Assembly: GCA_016182965.1 (NCBI GenBank)
Contig: JACPFM010000071.1
Location: forward strand, 3,181-67,180
Direction of reading: 5' to 3'
Length of the DNA stretch: 64,000 nt
Origin: Deltaproteobacteria bacterium
GTDB lineage: Bacteria > Myxococcota_A > Polyangia > Polyangiales > JADJMO01
A program made the translations under genes and the position numbers. Below, in pieces: positions 39,436 to 59,313 of this stretch (its first letter is position 1; the number at the start of each line of letters is the position of its first letter). The notes below the pieces were generated by a model. That model was given only the letters and a program-made list of their open reading frames with translations. It was not told the DNA's origin and did not search any database.

Positions 39436-40275
39436 CTACTTGCCGAAGAACCGCGGGGGACGCCGCTCGAGGAACGCCGACATCGCCTCGCCGAGATCGC
39501 CGGACGGGAGGAAGGCGGCGTTCCACGCGGCGACGTGACGGAGACCGCGGGCGACCTGCGGCGCGATCGCCTCGTCCATCACCTGCTTGATGCCCTGCAC
39601 GACCAGCGGCGGATTGTCGGCGATCGATCGCGCGAGCGCGCGCGCGCCGCCGAGCAGCGCGTCTTGCGACTCGAACACCTCGTTGACCAGACCGATGCGC
39701 AGCGCGTGCTCGGCCGGGAAATCGCGGCCGGTGAAGGCGAGCTCGCGCGCGTGACCCTCGCCGACGATCGCCGGAAGGCGCTGGAGGCTGCCGAGATCGG
39801 CGACCATCGCGACCCGCACCTCGCGCACGGAGAACCTCGCGTCGGCCGAGCACAGGCGGACGTCGCACGCGGTGATCAGGTCGACGCCGCCGCCGATGCA
39901 CCAGCCGTTCACCGCGGCGATCACCGGCTTGCGGCACGCCGCGACCGCGTTGAAGGCCCGCTGCAGCTCGAGGATCTTGTCGTAGAGGCGGGTGCGCGTG
40001 GCGGCCGCGCCTTCGCCGCCGAGGAGGGGGCCGAGATCGCCCATCATCGCGGGCAGATCGAGCCCGTAGGTGAAGTGCGGGCCGTCGGTCCTCACGAGCA
40101 CGGCGCGAACGTCGTCGTCGCGATCGAGGGCCTCGAACACGCCGGGACACTCGCGCCAGAAGGCCGGGCCCATCGCGTTGCCCTTCCCTGGACCGCAGAG
40201 GGAGACCTCGGCAATGGAGTCGTGCTTGTCGACGCGAAAGGACTCGAGCTCGGGCATCCGCGGAGGTTCGGGCAA
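39436..40275 (-). CDS. Enoyl-CoA hydratase/isomerase (crotonase) family, dienoyl-CoA isomerase-like
   Basis: ...KPVIAAVNGWCIGGGVDLITACDVRLCSADARFSVREVRV.... Crotonase oxyanion-hole blocks. Confidence 0.85.
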   Translation of the reverse strand: MPEPPRMPELESFRVDKHDSIAEVSLCGPGKGNAMGPAFWRECPGVFEALDRDDDVRAVLVRTDGPHFTYGLDLPAMMGDLGPLLGGEGAAATRTRLYDKILELQRAFNAVAACRKPVIAAVNGWCIGGGVDLITACDVRLCSADARFSVREVRVAMVADLGSLQRLPAIVGEGHARELAFTGRDFPAEHALRIGLVNEVFESQDALLGGARALARSIADNPPLVVQGIKQVMDEAIAPQVARGLRHVAAWNAAFLPSGDLGEAMSAFLERRPPRFFGK

Positions 40276-40336
40276 CGGCCGTCGAACGACAAGTCCCCAG
40301 GTTTCGGGCGATGCGTCTCCGCTGCTTGTCTCCGCT

Positions 40337-40422
40337 GGGTCGAAGGTCGAAGGTCCAATGTCGAAGGGGGCGAACCGAGGCGCTTCCTACGACCTTCGAC
40401 GTTCGACCTTCGACCCGGTCCG
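40337..40422. repeat. Heptamer hairpin element, copy R2 (hairpin only, no flanking arrays)
   Basis: The left arm gggtcgaaggtcgaaggtc pairs with the right arm gaccttcgacgttcgaccttcgaccc, followed by ggtccg. It sits in a divergent intergenic region. Confidence 0.85.
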
Positions 40423-40504
40423 CGAGCGCGCCGAGGCGGGCGTTGGCAGGGAGTCGCGAACGCCCACTGCGCAAAGCCGACGACTTCCGTTAGGCTCGTC
40501 GGCC

Positions 40505-41023
40505 ATGAAGATCGCGCCCGGCAGCATCGTCCGCATCGACTACGAGATCCGCGTCAAGGGCGGCGACGTCATCGAGTCGTCGGCGAAGTCCGGCCCCGTC
40601 CAGTACGTGCACGGCGAGGGCAAGCTGCTCCCCGCGCTCGAGCGACGCCTCGCCGGGCTCTCCGCCGGGCAGTCGCTCGAAGGAGAGATCCCTTCGGCCG
40701 AGGCGATCCCCCCGGAGGAGACGCTGCCCACGCGCGCCATCCCGCGCGCCGAGTTCCCCAAGGACGCGCCCCTCGAGATCGGCTCGCTGTTCGAGGCGCA
40801 CACCGCGACGGGCGGCGTGATCGATCTCCGCATCATCGCCGTCGACGAGCGGCACGTCACCGCGCGCCTCTTGCCGCCGCTGTTCGGCAAGGACCTCGCC
40901 TTCAAGGTGAAGGTGATGATGATCGAGGACCCGGTCAGCCACGCGCGCGAGATCGTCTTCAAGAAGCCCCCGCCCATCCCCGCGGAGGCCCTCGACCTCG
41001 AGCTCGAAGAGGCGAAGGACTAG
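40505..41023 (+). CDS. FKBP-type peptidyl-prolyl cis-trans isomerase (SlyD/SlpA-like, with an IF insert)
   Basis: MKIAPGSIVRIDYEIRVKGGDVIESS...VQYVHGEGKLLPALERRLAGL..G. Typical SlyD-like N-terminus. Confidence 0.85.
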   Translation: MKIAPGSIVRIDYEIRVKGGDVIESSAKSGPVQYVHGEGKLLPALERRLAGLSAGQSLEGEIPSAEAIPPEETLPTRAIPRAEFPKDAPLEIGSLFEAHTATGGVIDLRIIAVDERHVTARLLPPLFGKDLAFKVKVMMIEDPVSHAREIVFKKPPPIPAEALDLELEEAKD

Positions 41024-41128
41024 CCCTAGCTAGCCAGTAGGGTGCTCACGCCGGAGGACCCAAGCCGATGCCCACCCCTCGGGGTGAGATCGACGAGATA
41101 CCCATGATGCCAGATCGGCCACGATCCT

Positions 41129-41458
41129 GTGCCGCACGGCGGTGGTCCTGCCCTGTTACCACTCGCGGCCGCGAGCGTAATCCGTGGTTTTCGATCACCG
41201 CGGGCTGAAGCCCACGGCAACTCGCGCAAGCCCCGCTTCGCGGGGCTCAGCGGACGGTTTCGGTGGAATCGAGCCTGGAGCTGCGGACAACACACCTGCG
41301 GTGGACGTCCGAGCAAGCCCAGCGAAGCTGGGCTTCAGAGGCATGCCGTGGGCTTCAGCCCGCGGACATCAAGGGAAGCACGTCTCGGGATCTGTCATCG
41401 CGCGCTCCCCTCGTGGCCTCAGCCTTGAAAACAGGGTCGAACCACCGCCGAGCGGCAC
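41129..41458. other. 330-bp nested inverted-repeat, multi-hairpin element (candidate structured ncRNA or MITE)
   Basis: The outer 29-nt IR (41129-41157 vs 41430-41458) matches at 24 of 29 positions. The inner IR is a perfect 22 nt (41198-41219 vs 41344-41365). Internal GC hairpins lie at 41230-41246 and 41314-41334. No credible ORF. Confidence 0.6.
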
Positions 41459-41707
41459 CAGTCGTCAGTCTTCAGTCGAAGGGCGAGAGCTCCCCGCGTG
41501 TCCGGGCCCGAAGAGGCTGCTTCAAGGGGGCCGGGAGATTGCCGTCCGTTTCGACCTTCGACCCGAAGGTCGAATCGAGAGCCCATTTCCACGGGGTTCC
41601 AGGGGCTCCGCCCCTGGTTCGACCTTCAACCTTTCGACGTTCGACCAAGCTCGACGAAAGATTCACAGTCTCTGACGACTGACGACTGACGACTGACGAC
41701 TGACGAC
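41459..41707 (-). repeat. Heptamer-array/hairpin composite element, copy R3 (inverted orientation, both ends present)
   Basis: Degenerate left array gtcgtca-gtcttca-gtcgaag (41461-81). The core is the reverse complement of R1 (ccaggggctccgcccctgg). (TGACGAC)5 at 41673-41707 runs straight into the TCA stop of the minus-strand gene. Confidence 0.9.
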
Positions 41708-43231
41708 TCACAGCGGGTACCCCAGCGTCGCGCCGAGCAGCGTCACCAGGATCAGCACCACCGGCGCGAGCACCAGGAAGACGAGGAACGTGTAGCCCAT
41801 CACGTCCTTCGCCCGCAGGCCGAACAGGCCGAGGATGGGCAGCATCCAGAACGGCTGCACGAGGTTGGCGAGCGCCTCGCCGAGGTCGTAGACCGCGACC
41901 ATCCAGCCGAGGTGCACCTTCAGATCGTGGGCGGCCTGCATCACGTAGGGCGCCTCGATCACCCACTTCGACCCGCCGCTCGGCACGAAGACGCCGAGGA
42001 CGGCGGAGTAGACGGCGATCACCGCCGGGAAGGTCTTCGGCGTCGAGACGGAGACGAACCAGCCGGCGAGCTTCTCGTTGAGGTGCGTCTTGACGATCAG
42101 CGCGGCGATGCCCGCGTAGAAGGGGAACTGCAGGATCACGCCCCACACGCCGGGCGTCGCCTCGCGCACCGAGCGCATCAGGCGCGCCGGCGTGCCGTGC
42201 AGCGCGACGCCGCAGGTGAGGAACAGCAGGTTGATCGTGTTGAGGTTGAGCGCGTTGAGGCCCTGGCCGCTCTTGGCGAAGTACCGCACGAGGTAGGTGC
42301 TCGCGAGCAGCACGAAGAGCGCGTTGAGGATCGACGAGTGCTCGAGCCACTCGCCGGGCGTGCCCTTCACCGGCGGATCGTCGCGATCGAGCGGCGACTC
42401 GCCGAGCTCGATGCCCATCGAGGCGGCGGTGCGCGCGCGCGCCGCGTCGGGCGCGTAGAGGTAGACGAGCGCGGTGACGATCACGATCTCGACCGCGACG
42501 CTCACGAGGCTCTGCCAGAGGAAGATGGTGTTCGACAGCGGGATGACGCCGCCCGGGATCTTGCCGCCGCCGTCGACGATCTGGCGGATCGCGGGCTGCA
42601 GCGCGCTCGGCGTGGCCATCTGCAGCGCCGCCGAGCCGGAGAGCCCCTGCGCCCAGATGCTCCCGAGGCCGAGGAACGCGCTCGCCGCGACGGCGCGGTA
42701 GTCGACGCCCTGCACGCGGCGCGCGGTCTCCTTGGCGAGCATCGCGCTGAAGATCAGCGAGAAGCCCCAGTTCAGCCACGACGAGAGCATCGCGAACATC
42801 GCGACCCACGCGATCGCCACCTTGGGGGCGCGCGGGAAGCTCGCGAGCGCGGCGATCAGCCGGTAGACCGGCCGCGTCGTCGCCACGACGTACCCGGTGA
42901 TGATCACGAGGGCCATCTGCAGGGTGAAGGGGATCAGCTCCCAGAAGCCGGTGCCCCAGATCTCGGCGGCGGCCAGCGTGGCGCCGCGTACGCCGGCGGT
43001 CGGTCGCAGCATGAGCACCGCCGCGACGAACACGAGGAACGTCGCCACCAGGGCGAAGACGAACGCGTCGGGGATCCACCGCTCCGCCCAGCTGGTGAAG
43101 CGCGCGGCGCCGCGCGCGAGGAGCCCCTCGGGCGGCGGCAGATCGGGCCTGGGCGCGGACGATTCGCCGCCGCTGCTGGACGCCTGGCCCCCGGACTTGC
43201 CGAGGGAGCTCGGGAGATCGGCCCCGGACAT
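41708..43231 (-). CDS. Short-chain fatty acid transporter (AtoE/TIGR00366-like)
   Basis: ATG 43231 (MSGADLPSS...). WAERWIPDAFVFALVATFLVF..., FWELIPFTLQMALVIITGYVVA..., SWLNWGFSLIFSAMLA.... Polytopic, about 507 aa. Confidence 0.75.
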   Translation of the reverse strand: MSGADLPSSLGKSGGQASSSGGESSAPRPDLPPPEGLLARGAARFTSWAERWIPDAFVFALVATFLVFVAAVLMLRPTAGVRGATLAAAEIWGTGFWELIPFTLQMALVIITGYVVATTRPVYRLIAALASFPRAPKVAIAWVAMFAMLSSWLNWGFSLIFSAMLAKETARRVQGVDYRAVAASAFLGLGSIWAQGLSGSAALQMATPSALQPAIRQIVDGGGKIPGGVIPLSNTIFLWQSLVSVAVEIVIVTALVYLYAPDAARARTAASMGIELGESPLDRDDPPVKGTPGEWLEHSSILNALFVLLASTYLVRYFAKSGQGLNALNLNTINLLFLTCGVALHGTPARLMRSVREATPGVWGVILQFPFYAGIAALIVKTHLNEKLAGWFVSVSTPKTFPAVIAVYSAVLGVFVPSGGSKWVIEAPYVMQAAHDLKVHLGWMVAVYDLGEALANLVQPFWMLPILGLFGLRAKDVMGYTFLVFLVLAPVVLILVTLLGATLGYPL

Positions 43232-43373
43232 GGCCGCCAATCTCGCACGGAACGCCGCCGTCGCGGAGGGTGGCGGAGAAGGAGCGGCCGTGTCGCGCTC
43301 GCCGCGTCGTCGCGTCGACCCCGGGCGCGACGCTCGGGCGTGGTCGCGTCCTTGCATCGAGGATGCCGCAGTC

Positions 43374-45590
43374 GTGACCGACTCGGGCTCAGCACGCCGC
43401 GCGCGCCGCGCGTGGGATGACGTCCTGCTCGCGACCGTCGCCTCGATGGCGATGATCGCCCAGCAGGTCGCGGGCAAGGCGACCCGCGACGCCCTGTTCC
43501 TCACGCAGTTCTCGGTGCAGCGCCTGCCCGACATGATGATCGCCGGGGCCGCCGTCTCGTTCGGCGCGGCGATCTGGGCCGCGCGGGCGCTCGCGCGGCA
43601 CGGTCCCCGCAAGGTCGTCCGGGCGGCCTTCACCGCGAGCGCGGCCGCATTCGCGGCGGAGTTCGCGATCAGCTGGGTGTCGCAGCGGTCGATCGCGCTG
43701 ATCGTCTACGCGCACATGGCGCTGTTCGGCGCCACGCTCATCTCGCTCTTCTGGTCGCTGGTCAACGAGCGGTTCGACCCGCACGCGGCGAAGCCGGCGG
43801 TGGCGCGCATCGCGGCCGGCGGAACGCTCGGCGGCGTGCTCGGCGGCGCGATCGGCTGGAACATCGCGTCGTGGACCTCGGTGCGCGGCATGCTCGTCGC
43901 GTTGGCGGTGTTGAACCTGGTGGCCCTCGCCGCGGTCGCGAGGATGAGCGAGCGACGTGTCTCGGCGCCGTCGCTCGCGCCCTCCAAGCCGCCCGAGCCG
44001 GTGGCCATCGGCTCGGGGCTGCGCGCGATGCGCGCCGAGCCCTACCTGCTCACCCTCGGCGCGATGGTCGCGGTGCTCGCCCTGGTCGAGGCGCTCGTCG
44101 ACTGGTCGTTCGCCGCGCAGGCGCGCGATCGCTTCGTCACCGGGCGATCGCTGATGGCGTTCTTCTCGGCCTTCCACATGGTGGTGTCGATCCTCACCTT
44201 CGCGGCGCAGGCGATGCTGAGCCGGCGTTCGCTCGAGCGCTTCGGGCTCGCCGGCACCATGATGGCGGCCCCGCTGGTGGTGGCGATGCTCGCGGGCGCG
44301 GCCATCGACACGCCCGGGCTCTTCGCGATCGTGGTCCTGCGCGGCGGCGAGGCGGTGCTCGCCAACTCGCTGTGGCGCTCGGCCTACGAGCTGCTCTACA
44401 CGCCGGTCGCGCAGGAGAAGAAGCGGCCGACCAAGACGCTGATCGACGTCGGCTGCGATCGCCTCGGCACGCTGCTCGGCGCGGGCCTGGTCATCGTCAC
44501 GCTGCGCCTCGGCGTCGCGACGGTCGCGGTGCTGGTGCTGGTCCTGGTCTTCGCCGCGATGGCCATCGTCCTCGCGCGCCTGCTGCAGTCCGGGTACGTC
44601 GCGGCGCTGGAGGAGAGCCTGCGCACCGGCGCCGTCCGCGTCGAGGGGCCGGAGGTGTTCGAGCTCACCACGCGACGGACCATCCGGGCCTCGCGGCTGC
44701 GGGCGCCGATCGCCTCGCCGCCGCCGACGCCACCGCCGCCGCCGGCGCCGCCGAGCGACCAGGCGGCCGCCGAGGGCGATCGGTTGCTCGCGGCGATCGC
44801 CGATCTGCGCTCGCGCGAGCGCCGCCGCATCCAGCGCGTGTTGTGCGCCGCGGACGACGATCCGCGCCTCGCTCCCTTCGTCCTCCCGCTGCTCGGGCGG
44901 GCCGACGTCCGGAGCGAGGCGGTCGCGTGGCTGCGCCGGCTCGCGCCGCGGATCACCGGGCAGCTCGTCGACGCCCTGGTCGACCCCGCGACCGATCCGG
45001 ACGTCCAGCGACGGATCCCGCGGGTGCTGCGCGCGGCCGGGTCGCAGGTCGCCGTCGACGGGCTGGTGCGCGCGCTCGCCGACGATCGCTTCGAGGTGCG
45101 CTACGAGTGCGGGCTGTCGCTGGCGCGCATGGTCGAGAGGGATCCGTCGCTCGCCGTCGCCTCGGAGCCGATCGTCGCCGCCGTCCGCCGCGAGCTCGCC
45201 GTCGAGCGACGCATCCTCGAGGCCGAGCCGGCGCTCGACCTGCTCGACGACGACGGCGATGGACCGCTGTTCGACCCGGGCCTGCGCGATCGGGCGAGCC
45301 GCGGCCTCGAGCACGTGTTCACCATCCTCGCGCTGATGCTCGATCGGGAGCAGCTCCGCACGGCCTTCCGCGCGCTGGTCGCCGGCGACGACGCGCTGCG
45401 CGGCACCGCGCTCGAGTACCTCGAGAACGTGCTCCCCGGTGAGATGCGCGACGCGCTGTGGCCCTACGTCACCGGCGCGCACCGCCCCACGCGACGCGGC
45501 GCGCGGTCGGCGCAGGAGGTGCTCGCCGAGCTGCTCCGGGCCGAGGGCCCGCTGTCGGCGCTGCGCGGGCGCCGCGAGAGCCTCGCCTGA
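43374..45590 (+). CDS. TLC/Npt-like (MFS-type) membrane protein fused to a C-terminal HEAT/ARM-repeat domain
   Basis: GKATRDALFLTQF... near TM1 resembles the K..RD.L motif of ATP/ADP-translocase-like carriers. About 11 TM helices. C-terminal ~250 aa carry repeated ...VAWLRRL..., DPDVQRRIPRVL, DDRFEVRYECGLSLARM. The GTG start is uncertain. Confidence 0.55.
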   Translation: MTDSGSARRARRAWDDVLLATVASMAMIAQQVAGKATRDALFLTQFSVQRLPDMMIAGAAVSFGAAIWAARALARHGPRKVVRAAFTASAAAFAAEFAISWVSQRSIALIVYAHMALFGATLISLFWSLVNERFDPHAAKPAVARIAAGGTLGGVLGGAIGWNIASWTSVRGMLVALAVLNLVALAAVARMSERRVSAPSLAPSKPPEPVAIGSGLRAMRAEPYLLTLGAMVAVLALVEALVDWSFAAQARDRFVTGRSLMAFFSAFHMVVSILTFAAQAMLSRRSLERFGLAGTMMAAPLVVAMLAGAAIDTPGLFAIVVLRGGEAVLANSLWRSAYELLYTPVAQEKKRPTKTLIDVGCDRLGTLLGAGLVIVTLRLGVATVAVLVLVLVFAAMAIVLARLLQSGYVAALEESLRTGAVRVEGPEVFELTTRRTIRASRLRAPIASPPPTPPPPPAPPSDQAAAEGDRLLAAIADLRSRERRRIQRVLCAADDDPRLAPFVLPLLGRADVRSEAVAWLRRLAPRITGQLVDALVDPATDPDVQRRIPRVLRAAGSQVAVDGLVRALADDRFEVRYECGLSLARMVERDPSLAVASEPIVAAVRRELAVERRILEAEPALDLLDDDGDGPLFDPGLRDRASRGLEHVFTILALMLDREQLRTAFRALVAGDDALRGTALEYLENVLPGEMRDALWPYVTGAHRPTRRGARSAQEVLAELLRAEGPLSALRGRRESLA

Positions 45591-45596
45591 TCGGCA

Positions 45597-45692
45597 GTCG
45601 TCAGTCGTCAGTCGTCAGTCGTCAGTCGTCAGTCGTCAGTCGTCAGTCGTCAGAGAGTGTGAATCTCTCGTCGAGCTTGGTCGAAGGTCGAC
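45597..45692 (+). repeat. Heptamer-array element, copy R4 (truncated after the first arm)
   Basis: Exactly 8 GTCGTCA units (45597-45652), then gagagtgtgaatctctcgtcgagcttggtcgaaggtcgacc, homologous to the R1/R3 left half. The remainder is missing. Confidence 0.85.
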
Positions 45693-45743
45693 CTGCAAAG
45701 CATCTGGCGGGAGACGTGGGCGGTCGAGCAGGCGACGGTCGCG

Positions 45744-47072
45744 TCAGAAGCCGCGCGTCGAGCCGAGCATCACGCGGAGCTCGTTCGGTCGCAGCCCGTC
45801 CTCCCACGTCTCGGTGCCGGCGCCGACGAGCACCTCGAGCTGGTGGTCCGGTGAGCTGGTGGTGCGGAACCCGACGGCGGCGCTCAAGCGGGTGAGCTTC
45901 GGGTCGAGCTCCGAGAGGCGCGCGCCCCACACGTTGCCGGCGCCGAGCTGCAGCGCGCCGTGGAGCCAGATCCAGATCGGCCACTCGTACTGCGCGGTGA
46001 CCACCAGCGCGCTGCGATCGACGAGGCGCCCGGGGCGGTACCCGCGCATCGGCTCGAAGCCGCCGAGGGTGATCTGCTCGGTGAACGGGATCGCGCCGCG
46101 CAGCGGGTCGACGAAGGCGGCGTACCCGACGAGGCCGAGCGTGCGGCGATGTCCGACGTCGAGGAACGCGCCTGCGGTCGCGCCGTAGCGGAGCCACCTG
46201 CGGGTGGTGTCGCCTGCGTGCTCGCCCGAGAGGACGAGACGCGCGCCGGTGCGCGGCCCGTCGGGATCGCGCGAGTCGAGCACGAGATCGAGCCCCTGGT
46301 GCGCGATGGTGTACCCGTCTTCGAAACCGGGCGGCAGCTCGACCTGCCCGGAGGCCACGCGCTGCGCGAGGCTCGGATCTCCGCAGCACCTGCGATCGTC
46401 GTCGAACCGGAGCCGCCGCACGCCGATCGACGTGCGAACGGCGCTCGCCCGGAAGATCCGCAGATCGAACAGGAGGCTCGCGGCGGTGCGATCGGAGCGG
46501 TAGCGGCCGAGGTCGCGCTCGCGGCTGCGCGGCCCGAGGCCGCCGAATAGCCCGTCCGAGCGGCGGGTCCACTCCGCGCGCAGCGACACCGTGCCGCGGT
46601 CTTCGCCGCGGTAGCGGACGGTCAGCCGGTCGACGACCGTGAACGACAGCCAGTCTTCGCCCCACGTCGCGGCGTGCATGCGGAACGCGTTCTTGCGCAC
46701 GACGAAGTCGTCCCAGAAGAAGTAGACGCCGACGCTCGGCAAGAGGCCGAACTCGTAGAACGCCGTCGGGACCCAACCGATCTTGTGCGCCTCGTCGAAG
46801 GTGAAGAAGTCGACGAGCCGGGTGGGCCAGCGGTGCTTCTCGGCGTGCGTCGTGAGCGCGCCGAGCGGGACGCGCAGCACGTACTCGTGCACCATCCACA
46901 GCGGAAAGAGGACCGTGCGCGGCGCCCAGGCGACCGCCTCGCCGACGGTCGTCCGCCGCTCGCCGCGTCCGTCGTAGTCGGGGCGGGGGCGTCGGTACGT
47001 CGCTGCCGCGTCGCCGCTCGCGCTGATTCCGGCGACGAGCAGCGCCGTCGCAAGCCACAACCGCACGGGCAT
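45744..47072 (-). CDS. Outer-membrane Omp85/BamA-like (bacterial surface antigen) beta-barrel protein
   Basis: Signal peptide MPVRLWLATALLVAGISASG. The C-terminal barrel ends ...NELRVMLGSTRGF (terminal Phe). ...ITLGGFEPMRGYRPGRL... is Omp85-like. Confidence 0.65.
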   Translation of the reverse strand: MPVRLWLATALLVAGISASGDAAATYRRPRPDYDGRGERRTTVGEAVAWAPRTVLFPLWMVHEYVLRVPLGALTTHAEKHRWPTRLVDFFTFDEAHKIGWVPTAFYEFGLLPSVGVYFFWDDFVVRKNAFRMHAATWGEDWLSFTVVDRLTVRYRGEDRGTVSLRAEWTRRSDGLFGGLGPRSRERDLGRYRSDRTAASLLFDLRIFRASAVRTSIGVRRLRFDDDRRCCGDPSLAQRVASGQVELPPGFEDGYTIAHQGLDLVLDSRDPDGPRTGARLVLSGEHAGDTTRRWLRYGATAGAFLDVGHRRTLGLVGYAAFVDPLRGAIPFTEQITLGGFEPMRGYRPGRLVDRSALVVTAQYEWPIWIWLHGALQLGAGNVWGARLSELDPKLTRLSAAVGFRTTSSPDHQLEVLVGAGTETWEDGLRPNELRVMLGSTRGF

Positions 47073-47135
47073 CGGACGCCGGAGGCCCCGTCGCGTCGCT
47101 CGAAGACTTCTGTCGCGGTGCGTCATCTTCGCGCT

Positions 47136-47495
47136 ATGCTGTCGGCGATGATCGCGATCCGTGGCGCCGTCGAGGTCGACGCCGATACGGCCGAGGCCAT
47201 CGGCCGTGCCGTCGACGCTCTCTGCGCCGAGCTCACGCGCGCCAACGCGCTCGACCCGGGAGAGATCGTCTCCGCCTTCTTCACGCTGACGCCCGATCTC
47301 CACGCCGCGTTCCCTGCGCTCGCCGCGCGCAAGCAGGGCTGGGGCGACGTGCCGATGATCTGCGCGCAAGAGATCGACGTCCCCGGCGCGCTGCCCCGCG
47401 TCTGCCGCGTGCTGTTGCACGTGCGCCGCGACGCGCCCGGCACGCACGTCTACCTCGGCGGCGCGCGCAAGCTGCGGCCCGACCTGTCGCCGTGA
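47136..47495 (+). CDS. aroH: Chorismate mutase, AroH class
   Basis: (MLSA)MIAIRGAVEVDADTAEAI....SAFFTLTPDLHAAFPA.AAR...W.DVPMICAQEIDVPGALPRVCRVLLHV aligns by eye with B. subtilis AroH. The start may be 47148. Confidence 0.85.
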   Translation: MLSAMIAIRGAVEVDADTAEAIGRAVDALCAELTRANALDPGEIVSAFFTLTPDLHAAFPALAARKQGWGDVPMICAQEIDVPGALPRVCRVLLHVRRDAPGTHVYLGGARKLRPDLSP

Positions 47496-48313
47496 TCGTC
47501 GGGATCGTCGGCCTCGGGCTGCTCGGCGGGTCGTTGGCCCGCGCGCTCGCGCAGGTCGAGACGCGCGTGATCGCGGTCGATCCCGATCCGTCGGTGCGCG
47601 CCGAGGCCATCGAGCTGGGCGTGGTCGCCGAGGCGCACGCCGACGTCGGCCCGCACCTCGCCGCGTGCGACGTGGTGGTCCTCGCCGCGCCGGTGGCCGC
47701 CATCGAGGCTCTGCTCGCTCCGGTGTCGCAGTCGATGCACCAGGGCGCGGTGCTCACCGACGTCGCCGGGATCAAGCGCAGCGTGCTCGACGCCGCAGCC
47801 GACGCGGTGCACCCCGACGTGCGGTTCGTCGCGGCCCATCCGATGTTCGGCGGCGAGAGCGGCGGGTTCGCGGCGTCGCGCGCCGAGGTCTTCCAGGGCG
47901 GCGTGGTCGCGATCTGTGACGACCGCCTGCCGTTCTCCCCCGCAAGGGAGCACGAAGAGGCCATCGAGCAGGTGTCGGCGCTGTACCGATCGCTCGGCGC
48001 GCACGTCCTCCGCTGCGGCGCCGACGCGCACGACGCCGCGGTCGCCAAGGTCTCGCACCTGCCGTACGTCGTTTCGCACGCGGTGTTCGAGGTCGCCGCA
48101 GGCGACGCGCTCGCCGAGGCGCTCGCCGGCCCGGGCTTCCGCGGCGCGACGCGCCTCGCGGCGTTCGCCTATGGCGTGCAGGGCGAGGTCGCGCGTCGCA
48201 ACCCCCACTTGCCGGCTGCGATCGACGCGATGATCGATCGGCTGCGCGCGCTGCGCGACGCGCTCGCGTCCCCCGACGACGCGCGGCGCGCGCTCGCGCC
48301 CAAGCGAAGATGA
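47492..48313 (+). CDS. tyrA: Prephenate/arogenate dehydrogenase
   Basis: GTG overlaps the aroH stop. Rossmann IVGIVGLGLLGGSLA, ...DVAGIK..., ...FVAAHPMFG.... Pathway context with aroH. Confidence 0.85.
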   Translation: MIVGIVGLGLLGGSLARALAQVETRVIAVDPDPSVRAEAIELGVVAEAHADVGPHLAACDVVVLAAPVAAIEALLAPVSQSMHQGAVLTDVAGIKRSVLDAAADAVHPDVRFVAAHPMFGGESGGFAASRAEVFQGGVVAICDDRLPFSPAREHEEAIEQVSALYRSLGAHVLRCGADAHDAAVAKVSHLPYVVSHAVFEVAAGDALAEALAGPGFRGATRLAAFAYGVQGEVARRNPHLPAAIDAMIDRLRALRDALASPDDARRALAPKRR

Positions 48314-48376
48314 TCACGGAGAGGCGGGGACGAGGGAGGGGGAGGATTCGGGGGGGCCGTCCACGCCTCTCCGTGA
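48314..48376 (+). terminator. Long-loop hairpin immediately after the tyrA stop (13-bp stem, G-tract-rich loop)
   Basis: tcacggagaggcg ... cgcctctccgtga. The 37-nt loop contains the runs gggg, ggg, ggggg and ggggggg. Confidence 0.35.
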
Positions 48377-48555
48377 CGCGCTGCTTCATGCAGCCTGCCG
48401 CCGCCGCTCGCAATGGGCGATCCCCGTCGCGTCGGGCACGCCGAACGACGAAAGGTGCAGACGCTTGATGCGTCGCAGCAGGGCCGTGGGACGGGCCGTT
48501 CGTGCCGTGTCGGAACGCGCGCGAACGCGAGCGGCCAGAGGCGCGACACGTTCTC

Positions 48556-48591
48556 GTTCGACCGTCGACGTTCGACCGTCGGCCCGGTCCG
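48556..48591. repeat. Solo right-arm fragment of the heptamer hairpin family, copy R7
   Basis: ttcgaccgtcgacgttcgaccgtcggcccggtccg closely parallels the R2 right arm plus its cccggtccg tail. Confidence 0.65.
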
Positions 48592-48663
48592 CGCGAGCGA
48601 CACCGAGGTGGCGGTCACCATCCGCGAGCAGCCCATTCATCGGCAAGTTAGGATGGCGACGCG

Positions 48664-49878
48664 ATGTGTGACACGGCGGTCGTGGTCGGCGCGAGCGGCG
48701 TGCTCTTCGCCAAGAGCTCCGATCGCGATGCGAACGAGGCGCAGCTGCTCGAGTGGCACCCGCGCCGTCGCAGCGAGCCCGGCGCGCGCGTGCGCTGCAC
48801 GTGGATGTCCATCCCTCAGGTGCGCGAGACGAACGCGGTGCTGCTGTCGCGGCCGTTCTGGATGTTCGGAGCCGAGATCGGCGCCAACGAGCACGGGGTC
48901 ACCATCGGCAACGAGGCGGTGTTCACGCGCGAGGCGGTGCCGGCGATCGGCCTCACCGGCATGGACCTCTTGCGCCTCGCGCTCGAGCGCGCGTCGACGG
49001 CGAAGGAGGCGGTCGACACGATCGTGTCGCTCGCCGAGGAGCACGGGCAGGGCGGGCGCTGCGGCCACGAGGACCCGGGCTTCCGCTACTTCTCGAGCTT
49101 CCTCGTCGCCGATCCGCGTCGCGCCTACGTGCTCGAGACCGCGGGGCGCGCCTTCGCCATCGAGGAGGTGCACGGCGCGCGCACCATCTCCAACGCGCTG
49201 AGCATCCCGTCGTTCGCCGCCGCCCACGCCGCCACGCTCGTTCCGTGGGCCATCGACGCGCGGGCGCGGCGCGCGTGCACGACCGCGGCCTTCGGGCGCG
49301 CGCGCAGCGCCTCCGACGCGATGGCGGCGCTCCGCAGCCACGGCGACGGGGCGATGGCGGCGCGGCCCTCCTACGGTCCGCTGGTCGGCGCCTCGCGCGG
49401 ACCGTGCGCGCACGCCGGCGGCCTCGTCGCCGGCATGCAGACGGTCGCCTCGTGGGTGGCCGAGCTGCGCCCCGGCGGCGTCGCCCATTGGGTGACCGGC
49501 ACCGCCGCGCCCTGCACCTCGTTGTTCAAGCCGGTCGCGGTCGACGAGCCCCTGGATCTCGGACCGACGCCCGCCGATCGAGACGACGGTCGCTCGCTTT
49601 GGTGGCGTCACGAGCGGCTCCACCGCGCGGTGATGCGCGATCCGGCTCGTCTTCTGCCGCTGTTCTCGGCCGAGCGCGACGCGGTGGAGGCGCGCTGGGC
49701 GATCGCGCGTCCGGGCTCGCGCGCCGCGTTCGCCGAGGCCGACGCGCTGCTCGCCGCCTGGACCGAGCGCCTCGAGCGCCTCGAGCGGCTCGATCGCGTG
49801 AAGGGCGAGTCGGTCTCCGATCGTCGGCCGCCCTGGGCGCGGCGCTTCTGGCGCGATCGCCAGGAGCGCGCGCGATGA
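48664..49878 (+). CDS. C69-family (secernin-like) Ntn-hydrolase dipeptidase
   Basis: N-terminal MCDT (nucleophile Cys2), ...VLFAKSSDRDANEAQ..., ...FGAEIGANEHGVTIGNEA.... Typical C69. Confidence 0.8.
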   Translation: MCDTAVVVGASGVLFAKSSDRDANEAQLLEWHPRRRSEPGARVRCTWMSIPQVRETNAVLLSRPFWMFGAEIGANEHGVTIGNEAVFTREAVPAIGLTGMDLLRLALERASTAKEAVDTIVSLAEEHGQGGRCGHEDPGFRYFSSFLVADPRRAYVLETAGRAFAIEEVHGARTISNALSIPSFAAAHAATLVPWAIDARARRACTTAAFGRARSASDAMAALRSHGDGAMAARPSYGPLVGASRGPCAHAGGLVAGMQTVASWVAELRPGGVAHWVTGTAAPCTSLFKPVAVDEPLDLGPTPADRDDGRSLWWRHERLHRAVMRDPARLLPLFSAERDAVEARWAIARPGSRAAFAEADALLAAWTERLERLERLDRVKGESVSDRRPPWARRFWRDRQERAR

Positions 49879-51476
49879 GCAAGGTCCGCTCCGAGCGCGA
49901 CCTCCGCGAGGCGGTGCGCGATCGCTCGTTCGTGCCCGCGCGCGCCGAGCTGCCCGCGGTCGTGCAGCTGCTCGGGAGCGACGAGGACGCCGACGCGGCC
50001 GAGCGCGCGCTGGCCCGCGCCGGCGACGCGGGGGCGCGCGCCGCGATCGCGGCGTTCGAAGACGCGAGACCGCCGCTGCGTGGGCGCATCGTCAAGACGG
50101 TCGCGCGCGTCCCAGGCTTCGAACGCTGGCTGCTCGACCGCCTCGACGACGAGGACGGAAAGACGCGCCGCAACGCGATCGTCGCGCTCGGTCGGAGGCC
50201 CGAGGGGCCGGCGGGCACGCCGACCGAAGGAGACCTCGGCGCCGAGATCGAGGAGCGCCTCGCCGCGTCGTGGTCGCAGGAGCCTCGCGTCGAGCACCGG
50301 CGCTCGATCGCCGCCTCGCTCGGGAAGATCGGCGACGCCCGCGCCCTCGAGGTGCTGCGCGCGGCGCGCGACGCCGAGGACCCGGAGCTTCGGCGCATCG
50401 TCGGCGAGGCCTTGGTGAAGCTCGAGCGCACCGCCGCGCGCGAGGAGCGCGGGGCGATCGACGTCGCCGCGGTCCCGTCGCAGCCGCTGCTGGTCCGCTT
50501 CCGATGTCGGCGCGGCCTCGAGGAGGTGCTCGAGGAGGAGCTCGACGAGCTGTCGCCGAGCGTGGTCGGACCGGGCGTGATCGAGGCGCGCGCCGCGCTC
50601 TCCATCGCGAGCCTCTACCGCGCGCGCACCGCGCTCTCGTTCGGCTGGGTGCTGCCGGTCCCCTCGCGCGGCACGGTCGAGGAGCGGGTGGAGGAGGCGA
50701 TCGTCGCCGCCGCCCCGCTGCTGCGCCGGCACACCATCGGCCCGATCACCTGGCGCCTCGACTGGATCGGGGCCGGGCACCGGCGCGCGGCGACCTTCCG
50801 CGTCGCGCGCGGCGTCTCCGCGCGCCGCCCCGAGCTGCGCAACGATCCGACCGCGAGCCTGTGGGAGATCGCCGTGATCGGAGCGGACGACGGCATGAGC
50901 GTCGAGGCGCACCCCAAGGGCGCCGCCGATCCGCGCTTCACGTATCGCGTGGCCGACGTGCCAGCGTCGTCGCACCCGACGATCGCCGCGGCGCTCGCGC
51001 GTGCCTCCGGCGTGCGGCGCGACGAGGTGGTGTGGGATCCGTTCGTCGGCGCCGGCGCCGAGCTCATCGAACGCGCACGCCTCGGCGCCTGCCGCGCGCT
51101 GTACGGCAGCGATCTCGATCCGCGCGCGATCGAGGCGGCGCGCGCCAACGTCGCCGCCGCCGGCGTCTCCGCGGTGCTCGCCGTGTCCGATGCGCGCGAG
51201 TCGCGCCCGCCCGAGCCGGTATCGCTCGTCATCACCAACCCGCCGATGGGTCGCCGCGTGCTGGACCGACGGGCCCTCGAGCCCCTCTTCGAAGGGGTGT
51301 TCGCCAATGTGCGGGCGGCGCTGCGGCGCGACGGCCGCGTGGTCCTCCTGTCGCCGCTCTTCGGGCGCAGCGTGGAGATGGCCGCGCGACACGATCTGCG
51401 CGTGGTGCGCCGCGGCGCGGTCGATCTCGGCGGCTTCGACGCGGAGCTGCAGGTGTTCGAGGTGCGACGACGATGA
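49875..51476 (+). CDS. THUMP-like / class I SAM-dependent (N6-adenine or m2G type) RNA methyltransferase with an N-terminal HEAT-like region
   Basis: ATG overlaps the upstream stop. SAM motif I VWDPFVGAGAELIE and catalytic LVITNPPMG (NPPY-type). N-terminal ~190 aa are helical repeats. Confidence 0.7.
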   Translation: MSKVRSERDLREAVRDRSFVPARAELPAVVQLLGSDEDADAAERALARAGDAGARAAIAAFEDARPPLRGRIVKTVARVPGFERWLLDRLDDEDGKTRRNAIVALGRRPEGPAGTPTEGDLGAEIEERLAASWSQEPRVEHRRSIAASLGKIGDARALEVLRAARDAEDPELRRIVGEALVKLERTAAREERGAIDVAAVPSQPLLVRFRCRRGLEEVLEEELDELSPSVVGPGVIEARAALSIASLYRARTALSFGWVLPVPSRGTVEERVEEAIVAAAPLLRRHTIGPITWRLDWIGAGHRRAATFRVARGVSARRPELRNDPTASLWEIAVIGADDGMSVEAHPKGAADPRFTYRVADVPASSHPTIAAALARASGVRRDEVVWDPFVGAGAELIERARLGACRALYGSDLDPRAIEAARANVAAAGVSAVLAVSDARESRPPEPVSLVITNPPMGRRVLDRRALEPLFEGVFANVRAALRRDGRVVLLSPLFGRSVEMAARHDLRVVRRGAVDLGGFDAELQVFEVRRR

Positions 51477-52114
51477 TCCACGATCGAATGCTCCGAGCGC
51501 TGGCCGACGTGGCGGCGCAGGCCTGCGCCGGGCGACCGCCCGCGCACGACTTCCTCCACGTCGAGCGCGTGGCCGCGCTCGCGCGCACCATCGGCCAGGC
51601 CGAGGGCGCGCGCGTCGACGTGGTGGTCGCCGCCGCGCTTCTCCACGAGCTGATCAACCTGCCGAAGGACCACCCGGAGTCGCACCGCTCGGGCGATCTC
51701 TGCGCCGAGGAGGCGATGAAGGTGCTCGCCGGGGCGGGCGTCGCCGCCGACACCGCCGAGCGCGTCGCCGCGTGCATCCGCGACCACGCGTTCTCGAAGG
51801 GCGCCGCGCCGCCGACGTTCGAGGCGGCCGTGCTGCAGGACGCCGATCGGCTCGATGCCATCGGCGCGATCGGCGTCGCGCGGTGCTTCGCCACCTGCAG
51901 CGAGATGAAGCGGCCCTTCTACGCGCCCGACGATCCCTTCTGCGAGGCGCGGGCGCCCGACGACAAGCTGTGGGGCCTCGACCATTTTTTCCGCAAGCTC
52001 CTGCGCATCGAGGAGGGCCTGCACACCGAGACGGCGCGGGCGATCGGCCGCGAGCGCACCGCGTTCCTGCGGACGTACCTCGCCCGGCTCGAGGCGGAGC
52101 TCGCCGGGCGCTGA
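51473..52114 (+). CDS. HD-domain phosphohydrolase
   Basis: ATG overlaps the upstream stop. H..RV......AALLHEL (His...HD-like), ...LQDADRLDAIGAIG.... YedJ-like HD family pattern. Confidence 0.8.
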   Translation: MIHDRMLRALADVAAQACAGRPPAHDFLHVERVAALARTIGQAEGARVDVVVAAALLHELINLPKDHPESHRSGDLCAEEAMKVLAGAGVAADTAERVAACIRDHAFSKGAAPPTFEAAVLQDADRLDAIGAIGVARCFATCSEMKRPFYAPDDPFCEARAPDDKLWGLDHFFRKLLRIEEGLHTETARAIGRERTAFLRTYLARLEAELAGR

Positions 52115-52119
52115 CAGGA

Positions 52120-52372
52120 GTCGTCAGTCGTCAGTCGTCAGTCGTCAGTCGGCTGAATCTTCAGCGCCGCGGTCGAAGGTCGAAGGCCAGGGGCCAAGCC
52201 CCTGGAACCCCGGGCAGCATCGGCCTTGTTTCGACCTTCGACGTTTGCCCGTCGCCTCCGAACGGTGCGAGGCCTATTCCCTGGAAAGGTATGCCCGCCA
52301 TCTGCGGGACTTGTACGTCGAACTCGCCGATACGGCGGGAGGAAGGCCGGCACGTGACTGACGACTGATGAC
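52120..52372 (+). repeat. Heptamer-array/hairpin composite element, copy R5
   Basis: (GTCGTCA)4 at 52120-52147. Arms ggtcgaaggtcgaagg / ttcgaccttcgac around ccaggggccaagcccctgg. A 110-nt tail. Degenerate inverted array tgactgacgactgatgac at 52355-52372. Confidence 0.85.
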
Positions 52373-52402
52373 CCCGTCCTTCGCGAGCAGCGACTCGCCG
52401 AC

Positions 52403-53377
52403 CTACCCCACGATCTCGATCTCGGTGCCGAGCCCCTTGGCGCGTGCGGCGGCGTAGATGACGCGCGCGAGCGCGACGTCCTGGATCGCAAGGCCGGTGC
52501 TGTCGAACACCGTGATCTCGTCGTCGCTCGCGCGGCCGGGGAGGCGGCCGATGACGACCTCCCCGAGGGTGCCGTGGATCTGCCTCGCGTCGTAGATGCC
52601 CTCGTGGATGGGGACGTTGACCTCGCCGGAGTGGGTCGCCTGATCCCAGTCGTCGACGACCACCTTGGCGTCGACCAGCACGTTGGCATCGAGCTCCTGT
52701 TTGCCCGGCGCGTCGGCGCCCATCGCGTTGAGGTGCACGCCCTTCGGGACGAACGCGCGCTTGACGATGGGGGTCCGCACCGGCGTGGAGGTGCAGACGA
52801 TGTCGCAGGCACACGCCTCCTCCAGGGAGCCGACCCGGCCGGAGGCCTCGCGCGCGAAAGCCTCCGCGGCGTCGGTGCGCACGTCGTGCGCGACGACCTG
52901 GAGCTCACCGAAGACGACCCGGTGCGCATCGAGCAGCCAACGCGACTGCACGCCGGCGCCCACGAAGCCGAGGGTGCGCGGCAGCTTGCGCGCCAGGTAC
53001 TTGGACGCGACCGCGGCGGACGCGCCCGTGCGGGCGGCCGTGAGGATGGTGCCGTCCATGATCGCGAGCGGCACCGCCGTGTCGGGATCGGACAGCACGT
53101 AGACGGCCATCACCGCGGGCAGGCCGTGCTTCTCGGGGTTCTTGGGGTGGGAGTTGACCCACTTCACGCCGGCCGACGCGCCCGTCGGATCGTCGAAATA
53201 CGCGGGCATCGCCCGGAAGTCCCCCTCGTGGCGGTCGAGCGACAGGTACACCTTCGAGGGCATCAGCGCGGTGCCGCGCGCGTGGGCGGCGAACGCGGCC
53301 TCGATCGCGGGGACCGCCTCGTTCATCGAGACCACGGCGCGGACGTCGGCGTGCGAGAGGATGAGCGTCTTCGGCAT
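52403..53377 (-). CDS. Ornithine cyclodeaminase / mu-crystallin family enzyme
   Basis: ...GVKWVNSHPKNP..GLPAVMAVYVLSDPDTA.PLAIMDGT.LTAARTGA..AVASKYLA. and Rossmann GFVGAGVQ. Classic OCD/CRYM blocks. Confidence 0.9.
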   Translation of the reverse strand: MPKTLILSHADVRAVVSMNEAVPAIEAAFAAHARGTALMPSKVYLSLDRHEGDFRAMPAYFDDPTGASAGVKWVNSHPKNPEKHGLPAVMAVYVLSDPDTAVPLAIMDGTILTAARTGASAAVASKYLARKLPRTLGFVGAGVQSRWLLDAHRVVFGELQVVAHDVRTDAAEAFAREASGRVGSLEEACACDIVCTSTPVRTPIVKRAFVPKGVHLNAMGADAPGKQELDANVLVDAKVVVDDWDQATHSGEVNVPIHEGIYDARQIHGTLGEVVIGRLPGRASDDEITVFDSTGLAIQDVALARVIYAAARAKGLGTEIEIVG

Positions 53378-53438
53378 GGGCGGGCGAGCATATCGCCGGA
53401 CCCCACGTTCCGTCAGCGCGTCACGTGCGTCACGTGCG

Positions 53439-54458
53439 TCAGGTGACGAACGCGCGCACGACGCTGCGCCACAACGGCGCCGCGCCGGCCATCTCGCCGA
53501 CGAGCACCGCCTCGGCGGCGGCGCGATCGGCGCGGACGCCCGCGGCCGCGAGCCGGCGCGCGATGTGGTCGGCGACCGTCCAGCGCGTGACCAGATCGAG
53601 CCGGGCGTGCGCGAAGGTGCCGCGCTCGACCCACTCGAGGCCCCAGATCTCGTCGGCGATCCAGTCGGCGAGGATCGCCTCGGGGCGCTCGATCGTCGCG
53701 GTCCGCGCCTCGGCGCGGTCGAACGCCGGCGCCCAGGGCCTGTCGCGCAGGCCGCGCACGGGCACGTCGTGCAGCGACAGCAACGCGTCGCCGAACCACG
53801 CGAGCGCCTGCCCGCACGAGGACCCGTCGAGCTTGCTGCGATAGTGGTGCGCGACGTCGGTCCAGCTCACGTCCTCGAGCTTCGGGAACGGCTCGGCGTC
53901 GAGGACGGCCTTCGTGTCTTCGCCGGCGGCCAGGCGCGCGAGGAGGTCGCGCTCGAGGCGCTCCCAGCGCGCGAAGGGCACGCGGCGACGCGCGTCGAGC
54001 CGCACGGTCTTGCCGACCACCACGTCGGCCCCGAGCCGCCCCGCGCCGTCGCGGAGCGAGCTCCACGCGTCGGCGAGATCGATCGGCGGCCGATCGCCCA
54101 TCGTGCGGCAAGGGCAGCGGTGCTCGGTCGACACGCGTCGGCCTTCGGGCGTGGCCACCAGCCGGTAGGGGAAGCGCCGGCAGACGGAGGGCTTGGCGAG
54201 CGGGCCATGCGCCGCGTGGACGCGACAACCGTCATCGCCGAGGTGCGTGCACGCGCCGTCGCGCGCCGCGACCACCGCCGCGCCGATGTGCGGGTTGTGC
54301 GCGATCGAATCGGGCGCGAGGACCGTGAGGCGGCGCACCTCGGACCGCGTGACCGGCCCGATGGCGTGCACGTCGGTGCAGCAGAGACCGTCGCCGAAGC
54401 AGCGGTATCGTGCGCCCGGGCGGCTCGCGAGTCGAGGGGGTCGAGGACGAGCGCTCAC
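53439..54458 (-). CDS. Cys-cluster (YkgJ/CxxCxxCC-like) protein, function unknown
   Basis: N-terminal YRCFGDGLCCTDVH...ACTHLGDDGCRVH...SVCRRFPY...HRCPC. This Cys pattern is reminiscent of the UPF0153/YkgJ family. Confidence 0.45.
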   Translation of the reverse strand: MSARPRPPRLASRPGARYRCFGDGLCCTDVHAIGPVTRSEVRRLTVLAPDSIAHNPHIGAAVVAARDGACTHLGDDGCRVHAAHGPLAKPSVCRRFPYRLVATPEGRRVSTEHRCPCRTMGDRPPIDLADAWSSLRDGAGRLGADVVVGKTVRLDARRRVPFARWERLERDLLARLAAGEDTKAVLDAEPFPKLEDVSWTDVAHHYRSKLDGSSCGQALAWFGDALLSLHDVPVRGLRDRPWAPAFDRAEARTATIERPEAILADWIADEIWGLEWVERGTFAHARLDLVTRWTVADHIARRLAAAGVRADRAAAEAVLVGEMAGAAPLWRSVVRAFVT

Positions 54459-54482
54459 GGGTGGCGTATAGGCCGTTTCGCC

Positions 54483-54959
54483 ATGAAGACCAACGCAGCG
54501 CGGGTGCTCGACGCGCTCGGCATTCCCTACGAGCTGCGCGCGTACGAGGTCGATCCCGACGACCTGACCGCGGAGACGGTCGCGCGCAAGGTGGGCCTCC
54601 CGGCCGAGCAGGTGTTCAAGACGCTGGTCGCCAAGGGCGATCGCAAGGGCGTGTGCCTCGCCGTGGTCCCCGGCAACGCCGAGCTCGATCTCAAGGCGCT
54701 CGCGAAGCTCACCGGAGACGCGCGCCTCGAGACGGCGCCGCTCAAGGAAGTGCAGCCGCTCACCGGCTACGTCCGCGGCGGCGTCACCGCGTTCGCGTGC
54801 AAGAAGGACTATCCCGTCTTCGCAGACGAGACCCTCGAGCTCTTCGACGTCATCTCGGTCTCAGCGGGGCAGCGCGGACTGCAGATTCTGCTGTCACCGG
54901 CGGATTACCTGCGCGCGACCAACGCGAAGCTCGGGCCCATCGCGCGCGACTTCCGCTGA
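54483..54959 (+). CDS. ybaK: Cys-tRNA(Pro)/Cys-tRNA(Cys) deacylase YbaK
   Basis: MKTNAARVLDALGIPYELRAYEVDPDDL.AE.VA.KVG....VFKTLV.....GV.LAVVPG...LDLKALAK..G; GYVRGG.TAF. Full YbaK pattern. Confidence 0.9.
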   Translation: MKTNAARVLDALGIPYELRAYEVDPDDLTAETVARKVGLPAEQVFKTLVAKGDRKGVCLAVVPGNAELDLKALAKLTGDARLETAPLKEVQPLTGYVRGGVTAFACKKDYPVFADETLELFDVISVSAGQRGLQILLSPADYLRATNAKLGPIARDFR

Positions 54960-55034
54960 CGCGCCCCGCCTGACGCGGCCGCGTCGACGCGGCCGGAATC
55001 GATCCCTCGAGCGCACCCGGTGGCGCACGAGCGC

Positions 55035-59308: not shown

Positions 59309-59313
59309 CGACA

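Follow-up and report, generated by a model that had tools for sequence, protein, structure and literature searches.

Why do tandem arrays of the heptamer GTCGTCA begin so close to the ends of genes, and always with the same strand facing the upstream gene? The question is raised by a 64,000-nt stretch of a bacterial contig (JACPFM010000071.1 of assembly GCA_016182965.1, positions 3,181 to 67,180; hereafter, the window), in which an original prediction had found six such arrays next to TGA stop codons and had proposed either a target-site preference for TGA-proximal sequence or a function linked to the end of translation or transcription. We found that each array is a terminal inverted arm of one copy of a dispersed non-coding repeat family in a Polyangiales-like (Myxococcota) metagenome-assembled genome (MAG), and that the family is a member of a known heptamer-repeat class. 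In our judgement it is rather probable that this is a lineage-specific family of palindromes with heptamer-microsatellite arms, similar to repetitive extragenic palindromic (REP) sequences and their inverted doublets (REPINs) or to miniature inverted-repeat transposable elements (MITEs), which spread recently, has been retained mainly in 3' spacers and is probably transcribed into long barrier hairpins in 3' untranslated regions (UTRs).

The arrays had been regarded as free-standing features, and it had gone unnoticed that each of them is the outer arm of a larger palindrome. The plan is composite, (GTCGTCA)n-spacer-(GGTCGAA)n-core hairpin-(TTCGACC)n-spacer-(TGACGAC)n, with a short GC core hairpin (CCAGGGGCGGAGCCCCTGG or variants) in the middle, and it was found at six loci in the window (E1-E6), with a heptamer arm copy number that varies between loci (4, 5, 8, 9). 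The loci, together with the features that adjoin them, are as follows.

15951-16151: E1 locus, without a right outer arm.
15951-16022, plus strand: E1 left outer arm, two (GTCGTCA)4 blocks separated by a 9-nt interruption, the second followed by GTCGTGA.
16041-16151: E1 inner palindrome, with (GGTCGAA)4 at 16041-16069, core hairpin CCAGGGGCGGAGCCCCTGG at 16070-16088 and (TTCGACC)4 at 16124-16151.
40338-40415: E2, inner arms only, four (GGTCGAA)-like and four (TTCGACC)-like units.
41459-41707: E3 locus.
41459-41478, plus strand: degenerate left outer arm of E3, cagtcgtcagtcttcagtcg, which pairs with the right arm.
41599-41672: E3 centre, with the core hairpin at 41599-41617, a (TTCGACC)-like inner right arm at 41618-41646 and a conserved spacer at 41647-41672.
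41673-41707, minus strand: E3 right outer arm, (TGACGAC)5 on the plus strand, the feature from which the original prediction started.
45597-45692, plus strand: E4, a left half-element whose right half is missing, with (GTCGTCA)8 at 45597-45652, the conserved spacer GAGAGTGTGAATCTCTCGTCGAGCTT and then GGTCGAAGGTCGAC.
52120-52372: E5, with (GTCGTCA)4 at 52120-52147, (GGTCGAA)2 at 52171-52184, the core hairpin at 52187-52205, a (TTCGACC)-like arm at 52230-52243 and a degenerate right arm, TGACGACTGATGAC, at 52359-52372.
59313-59566: E6, a complete element, with (GTCGTCA)4 at 59314-59341, four (GGTCGAA)-like units at 59396-59423, five (TTCGACC)-like units at 59450-59484 and TCACGAC plus (TGACGAC)4 at 59531-59565.
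59305-59321, plus strand: perfect palindrome CTGACGAC-A-GTCGTCAG, which contains the stop TGA (59306-59308) of the MerR gene.
59566-59568, minus strand: stop TGA of the OPT transporter gene, which directly abuts the E6 array.
41129-41458: a second, unrelated palindromic element in the spacer between the FKBP gene and the short-chain fatty acid (SCFA) transporter gene, with outer arms at 41129-41157 and 41430-41458 and inner arms at 41193-41247 and 41316-41370.

The arrays themselves are well defined. Matches to (GTCGTCA)2 with at most one mismatch number 30 in the window (0.05 expected), and Tandem Repeats Finder (TRF) returned 7-nt arrays of 4.7-9.7 copies at 93-100% match, some of them perfect; as head-to-tail 7-nt repeats that are intergenic and longer than chance, they are heptameric simple sequence repeats (SSRs), or long SSRs (LSSRs). 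A 7.2-kb contig from an independent short-read assembly of the same organism (L108, Logan SRR12113421) matches window positions 52127-59312, and both of its ends fall inside heptamer arrays, those of E5 and E6; breaks at these places indicate that the arrays are real and that they fragment assemblies of this lineage.

At the gene ends, the coordinates, gaps, palindrome and stop-codon arithmetic of the original prediction were all correct. The TCA that directly follows the last TGACGAC unit at 41708-41710 (E3) and at 59566-59568 (E6) is a genuine stop, of the minus-strand SCFA and OPT transporter genes, respectively, and E6 occupies the whole convergent spacer between MerR (plus) and OPT (minus). 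The gaps of 5, 5, 6 and 23 nt between a plus-strand TGA and its array also stand: E5 starts 5 nt past the stop of an HD-domain gene, E4 starts 6 nt after a TGA at 45588-45590, and E1 starts 23 nt past that of an S8 peptidase gene (15925-15927), while the side of E1 that has no outer arm, the right, faces the start of a gene at 16232. The palindrome at 59305-59321 is exact, and it is true of the sequence that (GTCGTCA)n has no stop in any of its three frames and (TGACGAC)n has TGA in all three. The inventory of six arrays was right as far as it went, but two degenerate outer arrays, at 41461-41474 and 52359-52372, had been overlooked; both of them are likewise turned toward a gene 3' end, at distances of 437 and 30 nt, respectively, of which the second is counted to the TAG (52403-52405) of a minus-strand ornithine cyclodeaminase (OCD) gene.

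Because a palindrome with the arms 5'-(GTCGTCA)n...(TGACGAC)n-3' is the same on both strands, either flanking gene end meets GTCGTCA first. The orientation rule is thus the geometry of the palindrome and not an independent observation, and the stop-codon rule is mostly a consequence of the shape of the element and its location. Convergent spacers hold four of the six elements, although only 10 of the 54 spacers in the window are convergent (p = 0.013), and outer arms are present in the window on 8/9 sides facing a 3' end and on 0/3 sides facing a 5' end (p = 0.018). When related contigs were included, the contrast was weaker (lineage-wide, 13/14 vs 3/6 sides; p = 0.06). The association of arrays with gene 3' ends is therefore real in the window, but "always" fails outside it, where outer arms in the contigs L117 and L119 abut start codons. 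Five of the eight window arms lie within 6 nt of the facing stop, which is very unlikely under a naive null of uniform placement per intergenic base (p ~2e-6). However, the convergent spacers of the window that contain no element measure only 3, 10, 15, 21 and 52 nt, and an insertion that spares both genes in such a spacer must end near a stop; closeness to stops is expected because the elements sit in spacers that are so short when empty. The gaps flanking E6 (5 nt in total) and E5 (35 nt) both fall within this range.

The copies also have non-repeat sequence in common. In the alignment of window and related-contig copies, the spacers of E3 and E4 match at 31/33 nt, and a 26-nt core, CCAGGGGCGGAGCCCCTGGAACCCCG, is identical between E1 and E3. 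Such shared spacer and core sequence means that the copies are related by descent and are not independent microsatellites. When folded, E6 forms one hairpin of ~125 bp (-182 kcal/mol, z = -12.7) that spans from 5 nt past the MerR stop to the base preceding the OPT stop, and E3 folds with z = -4.5. The elements have the features by which MITEs are recognized, namely terminal inverted repeats, a non-coding sequence of under ~500 bp and dispersed copies sharing internal sequence. They do not consist of REP or REPIN units, as the arms are tandem heptamers and not single REP palindromes, and only the fixed-polarity inverted doublet is in common. At the gathering threshold, Rfam recognized only a tRNA in the window, and no match with E <= 1 was obtained in 40200-59700, the interval holding E2-E6. 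In the same interval, intrinsic terminators were not above shuffle expectation. No T-run follows the elements, and the only terminator match at an element end, at 59299-59312, was at chance level. A hammerhead-like reading of CUGAUGA/GAAA/GUC motifs was dropped, as it had no support from Rfam.

Comparison with relatives points to recent spread. In ~100 kb sampled from relatives (contigs L109, L111, L113, L120 and L121; 73-90% protein identity), no GTCGTCA or GGTCGAA array was detected. The convergent stops of the SCFA and FKBP genes are 4 nt apart in L120 vs 684 nt in the window, where the spacer contains E3 plus the unrelated palindrome; in L123, the gene that next converges on SCFA is not FKBP, and its stop and the SCFA stop are 10 nt apart. 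In the divergent spacer between the enoyl-CoA hydratase and FKBP genes, which carries E2, the distance is 247 nt in the window vs 65 nt in L120. The empty-site comparison that had been called for thus gave one clean empty site, at SCFA-FKBP, but no direct repeat, or target-site duplication, was seen flanking E6 or E3, where the boundaries are blurred by degenerate units and by ~10% divergence from empty sites. As L120 has TAG, the insertion junction was considered as the source of the TGA that ends the SCFA gene, an idea that was withdrawn because L122 and L123 show a native TGA. The inner arms of the unrelated palindrome are 55 nt long and of the GGGCTGAAGCCC type, and a similar motif is present at a broken contig end of L122, just past the SCFA stop.

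The same family occupies other sites in five metagenome contigs (L115-L119; five loci in a metagenome scan with the composite pattern). In L117, the right arm extends to the ATG of a Der/EngA GTPase gene, and in L119 a gap of 29 nt separates the left arm from the downstream ATG of a DsbA-like lipoprotein gene. The 780-nt spacer between tandem DsbA-like genes in L119 (11631-12410) holds several nested or adjacent heptamer palindromes, among them repeats of the (AGAAGGTC)/(GATCTTCT) type. Other hairpins, built from an 8-nt repeat, (CACGGAGG)n ... (CCTCCGTG)n, were observed downstream of the MerR and HD-domain genes in L109 (~5830-5930) and L120 (~5090-5170), where GTCGTCA elements are absent; sister lineages thus have different short-unit hairpin families at the same type of site. 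The literature on described myxobacterial palindromic repeats gave nothing relevant.

The following account builds on what was observed, namely the modular plan of the copies, the sequence they have in common, their absence from the relatives' sampled DNA, the inflated spacers and the statistics on polarity. Copies would have spread by transposition or copying in a REP/REPIN- or MITE-like manner, and their arms would change length by slippage. They may survive mainly where they are harmless, that is, downstream of genes and especially in convergent gaps of 3-52 nt, and survival in such tiny 3' gaps would bring the ends of the element up to, and even over, stop codons. The whole element would then be transcribed as 3' UTR and fold into a very long hairpin, which could serve as a barrier to transcription or to exonucleases between converging genes. 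Transcription, folding in vivo and a terminator or stabilizer role are thus predicted properties.

Are such arrays peculiar to this lineage? When one genome per species was scanned for (GTCGTCA)3, at least 107 loci were obtained, at which genes were called with a simple caller that agreed with existing gene calls on two loci; the following statements apply to the matches listed. They come from Acidobacteriota, Chloroflexota, Streptomyces, Cyanobacteria, Omnitrophota, Patescibacteria, an archaeon and others, with a G+C content of 36-74%, and the arrays are intermixed with one- or two-mutation variants and often followed by an inverted array. The variants include GTCATCA, GTGGTCA, GTTGTCA and GTTATCA, the last being the reverse complement of TAACTGA. 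Of 111 arrays, 92 are intergenic; the array is nearer its 5'-side gene in 50/66 cases (p = 3e-5), and it begins at most 6 nt from the stop in 16 of the 37 arrays that have a co-directional upstream gene, the adjacent stops being TGA (12), TAG (10) and TAA (4). Forty-five arrays face the start of a gene on the opposite strand, often as (TGACGAC)n, Shine-Dalgarno sequence (SD) and ATG in the mRNA sense. A complementary partner arm was found downstream in 15 cases and upstream in none, and the stronger pairing was with the downstream flank in 64 and with the upstream flank in 32. The window conforms to the positional rule for heptameric SSRs (nearer the 5' open reading frame [ORF], near or over its stop), with gaps of 0, 0, 5, 5, 6 and 23 nt. 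A shared "NNNCAGT" core that would unite all heptamer families with short tandemly repeated repetitive (STRR) sequences was considered and set aside, the variants beside the seeds being related by descent.

This wide distribution raises the possibility that no mobile element is involved and that ordinary LSSR/STRR-type repeats arose in situ by slippage from chance proto-units at gene ends (e.g., ...AC TGA CG). Among the long SSRs of bacteria, heptamers are the most frequent class (Mrazek 2007, as cited in PMC4679880), (GTCGTCA)n arrays with one- or two-mutation variants occur in >100 genomes of many phyla, arm copy number differs from locus to locus, and ancestral gene ends in the relatives do match the unit over 7 nt, with GACTGAC where FKBP stops and ACTGACG where OPT stops. 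Slippage of a 7-mer, however, does not turn a 4-nt spacer into one of 684 nt, nor does it account for the non-repeat spacers and the core hairpin that copies share, for arrays that occur always inside the same multi-part palindrome, or for their complete absence from the sampled relatives. We therefore regard an origin by slippage without a mobile element as unlikely.

Does the adjacency to stops then reflect targeting of TGA-proximal sequence or an action at the end of translation, such as ribosome stalling at a hairpin 0-6 nt past the stop or a regulated read-through into (VVSRQSS)n? Several observations lean in this direction: in the lineage, 8/13 arms facing a 3' end begin at most 6 nt from the stop; at four ends the array is immediately preceded by a TGA, which in three of them is the working stop; and close spacing to co-directional stops recurs in other phyla (16/37, as above). 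REP hairpins within ~15 nt of a stop are reported to stall ribosomes in E. coli. The end of the OPT gene (59566-61632, minus strand) favors the earlier intuition in one point. Its protein ends ...KVL, whereas nearly all of the ~70 closest homologues run two or three residues further, typically P-[GS]-H; the short C-terminus indicates that the element junction removed the last three codons and that the clipped gene now stops at the array-adjacent TGA.

However, the adjacency is not specific to TGA. It is the background stop of the window, accounting for 45 of its 55 stops (82%), and six of six TGA then has p = 0.30, so that "always TGA" is uninformative; in L117 the array overlaps a TAG by one base, in L115 it starts 4 nt after a TAG, and TAG and TAA stops are hugged equally elsewhere. 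The relative L109 has a TGA at the position matching the MerR stop. The junction TGA|GTCGTCA is the stop of a zinc-ribbon gene in L118, but in L119 it lies 57 nt past the true stop, beyond an ordinary terminator-like hairpin and with the same CTTTGA flank as at OPT, which hints that one version of the element end could include the TGA itself. Moreover, start codons too have arms beside them, 0-30 nt upstream (L117, L119 and numerous loci of other phyla), the distance to the stop is 30 nt for one arm and 437 nt for another, and ancestral spacers of 4-10 nt force closeness in any case. A translation-linked role is thus not supported, the tight spacing being explained more simply by insertion of elements into spacers of a few nucleotides, and we give this explanation only a small chance.

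Several points weigh against a lineage-specific palindromic family that spread recently and was tolerated in 3' spacers. The spacers of E6 are unlike those of E1, E3 and E4, which means that the family is heterogeneous or that arms can be acquired independently. The SCFA-FKBP site is the only clean empty site, and its spacer in the window also carries the unrelated palindrome; at the OPT/MerR and HD/OCD sites, the gene order differs from that of the relatives. No transposase or REP-associated tyrosine transposase (RAYT) was identified and no insertion sequence (IS) was seen in the 64-kb window, the only DNA read for this purpose, whose proteins were screened in part, so the argument for mobility consists of presence or absence of copies and of their shared sequence. 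Occurrence of the same heptamer arrays in many unrelated phyla fits a recurrent origin by slippage equally well. In addition, tolerance fails to account for the strict polarity, with GTCGTCA always as the 5' arm, since arms turned the other way would bring a clipped upstream ORF to an immediate stop and be safer for it.

This polarity could have a broader cause. There may be one pan-bacterial class of heptamer-armed hairpins (Myxococcota, Acidobacteriota, Chloroflexota, Actinomycetota, Cyanobacteria, Patescibacteria and others) with an obligatory polarity, in which the open-frame GTCGTCA-type strand is the 5' arm and a single undiscovered mechanism generates or mobilizes the hairpins, docks at ORF boundaries and is able to overwrite the last codons and supply a new stop, as at OPT. 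We hold this to be doubtful; if true, polarity and adjacency to stops and starts would be the signature of that mechanism, or of a conserved function at the RNA level (translational coupling or insulation), and not of passive tolerance. Strict arm polarity, seen in many phyla, is the scientific point that has no proposed mechanism, and if it reflects a dedicated mobilizing or RNA-processing system, the elements would give a way to find that system.

It seems quite improbable that the arrays are repeated sites for a sequence-specific DNA- or RNA-binding protein (a regulator, nucleoid protein or RNA chaperone) whose role at gene boundaries sets their position and polarity. In favor of such a protein, polarity is strict across phyla (15:0 among the matches listed), the unit stays 7 nt while its sequence drifts, and heptamer-binding factors have been speculated on for Beggiatoaceae and Nostoc (PMC4679880; bioRxiv 10.1101/2022.06.06.494920). 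Against it, a candidate protein was not found, no window gene is linked to the arrays, complementary arms would self-fold in RNA or single-stranded DNA, and the wide sequence variation between phyla makes a single conserved binder unlikely.

The genomic surroundings are those of a G+C-rich (72%) MAG labelled Deltaproteobacteria, and the flanking proteins place its nearest named relatives in Polyangium and other Polyangiales. All heptamer arrays lie outside genes supported by Pfam. The ten array-flanking genes tested have Pfam support (S8 peptidase, TMEM260-like, enoyl-CoA hydratase, FKBP, SCFA transporter, MFS/HEAT protein, Omp85-like, HD-domain protein, OCD and MerR), and an eleventh, the OPT transporter gene, is supported by precomputed PF03169 assignments on its homologues. 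Other repeats were also seen in the window. A hexamer array, (CGCGTC) in ~16 copies at 84% match, lies at 9962-10056. The 558-nt gap upstream of a histone H1-like gene contains a perfect 26-nt tandem repeat (24865-24964, 3.8 copies) and an 11/22-nt repeat (25039-25107), and the gene itself has 27-nt coding repeats of the AKKAAKKAG type at 25335-25688; an A9 run at 25176-25184 is unusual for sequence of this G+C content. A 15-nt tandem repeat, TGATCGGCTGACGGG, in 3.5 copies at 57855-57915 marks the start of the 686 nt that separate the DUF1232 and MerR genes, in which no gene was called.

How does this family compare with known systems? The positional rule seen here is already published for other bacterial heptamers. 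As described by Rehm et al. 2015, PLoS One (PMC4692102), the heptamers GGGAATC of Xanthomonas and GGGGAYT of Nostoc lie almost exclusively nearer the 5' neighbouring ORF, whatever the ORF orientation, are rare between divergent ORFs, form inverted pairs able to make stem-loops, typically have ~4 units and are generally not associated with IS or transposable elements. Our arrays resemble them as intergenic tandem heptamers with inverted pairs that hug the 5' neighbour. They differ in a unit that is not G-rich and has no G-quadruplex potential, in forming the outer of two tiers in a palindrome whose non-repeat core is conserved, and in their absence from the sampled near relatives. The striking pattern of the arrays is in this way explained without a new translation-linked signal and is tied to a published, little-known heptamer rule.

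TAACTGA repeats are described in Beggiatoaceae, Cyanobacteria and Bacteroidetes, with the strand that has stops in all frames just 5' of start codons, and those of BOGUAY (Ca. Maribeggiatoa) are mostly short direct repeats in 5' leaders (MacGregor 2015, PMC4679880). For Nostoc, a preprint ascribes regulatory effects to heptamer repeats near start codons (bioRxiv 10.1101/2022.06.06.494920); no mechanism is offered in these two sources or in PMC4692102. The window family shares with STRR and TAACTGA heptamers an intergenic location, a patchy phylogenetic spread and an orientation-specific placement at ORF boundaries, and (TGACGAC)n just upstream of starts in L117, L119 and other phyla is a further likeness to TAACTGA repeats. 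Unlike the BOGUAY repeats, the window copies are arms of long palindromes and are found mainly at 3' ends.

With REP, REPIN and bacterial interspersed mosaic elements (BIMEs) of Proteobacteria, the family has in common that its members are dispersed palindromes outside genes, with enrichment downstream of 3' ends and in convergent spacers, and that they are fixed-polarity inverted doublets forming long hairpins. A REP unit, in contrast, is one imperfect palindrome, 20-40 nt long, that carries a conserved 5' tetranucleotide, whereas the arms here are tandem heptamers. REPs are tied to a gene for a RAYT, a Y1 transposase. They are reportedly transcribed into 3' UTRs, where they are said to block exonucleases and to affect translation if very near the stop.

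Bacterial MITEs (Correia/CREE, ERIC and RUP) differ from the window family, for which no target-site duplication or parent insertion sequence was found and in which the terminal repeats are microsatellites of variable length. The likeness lies in a non-autonomous nature, a length of 100-300 bp, inverted repeats at the termini, bursts confined to particular lineages, transcripts that form or would form hairpins, and the remodelling of gene ends. The family also illustrates clearly how palindromic repeats expand convergent spacers of 4-10 nt to hundreds of nucleotides, cut into the ends of genes and interrupt short-read assemblies.

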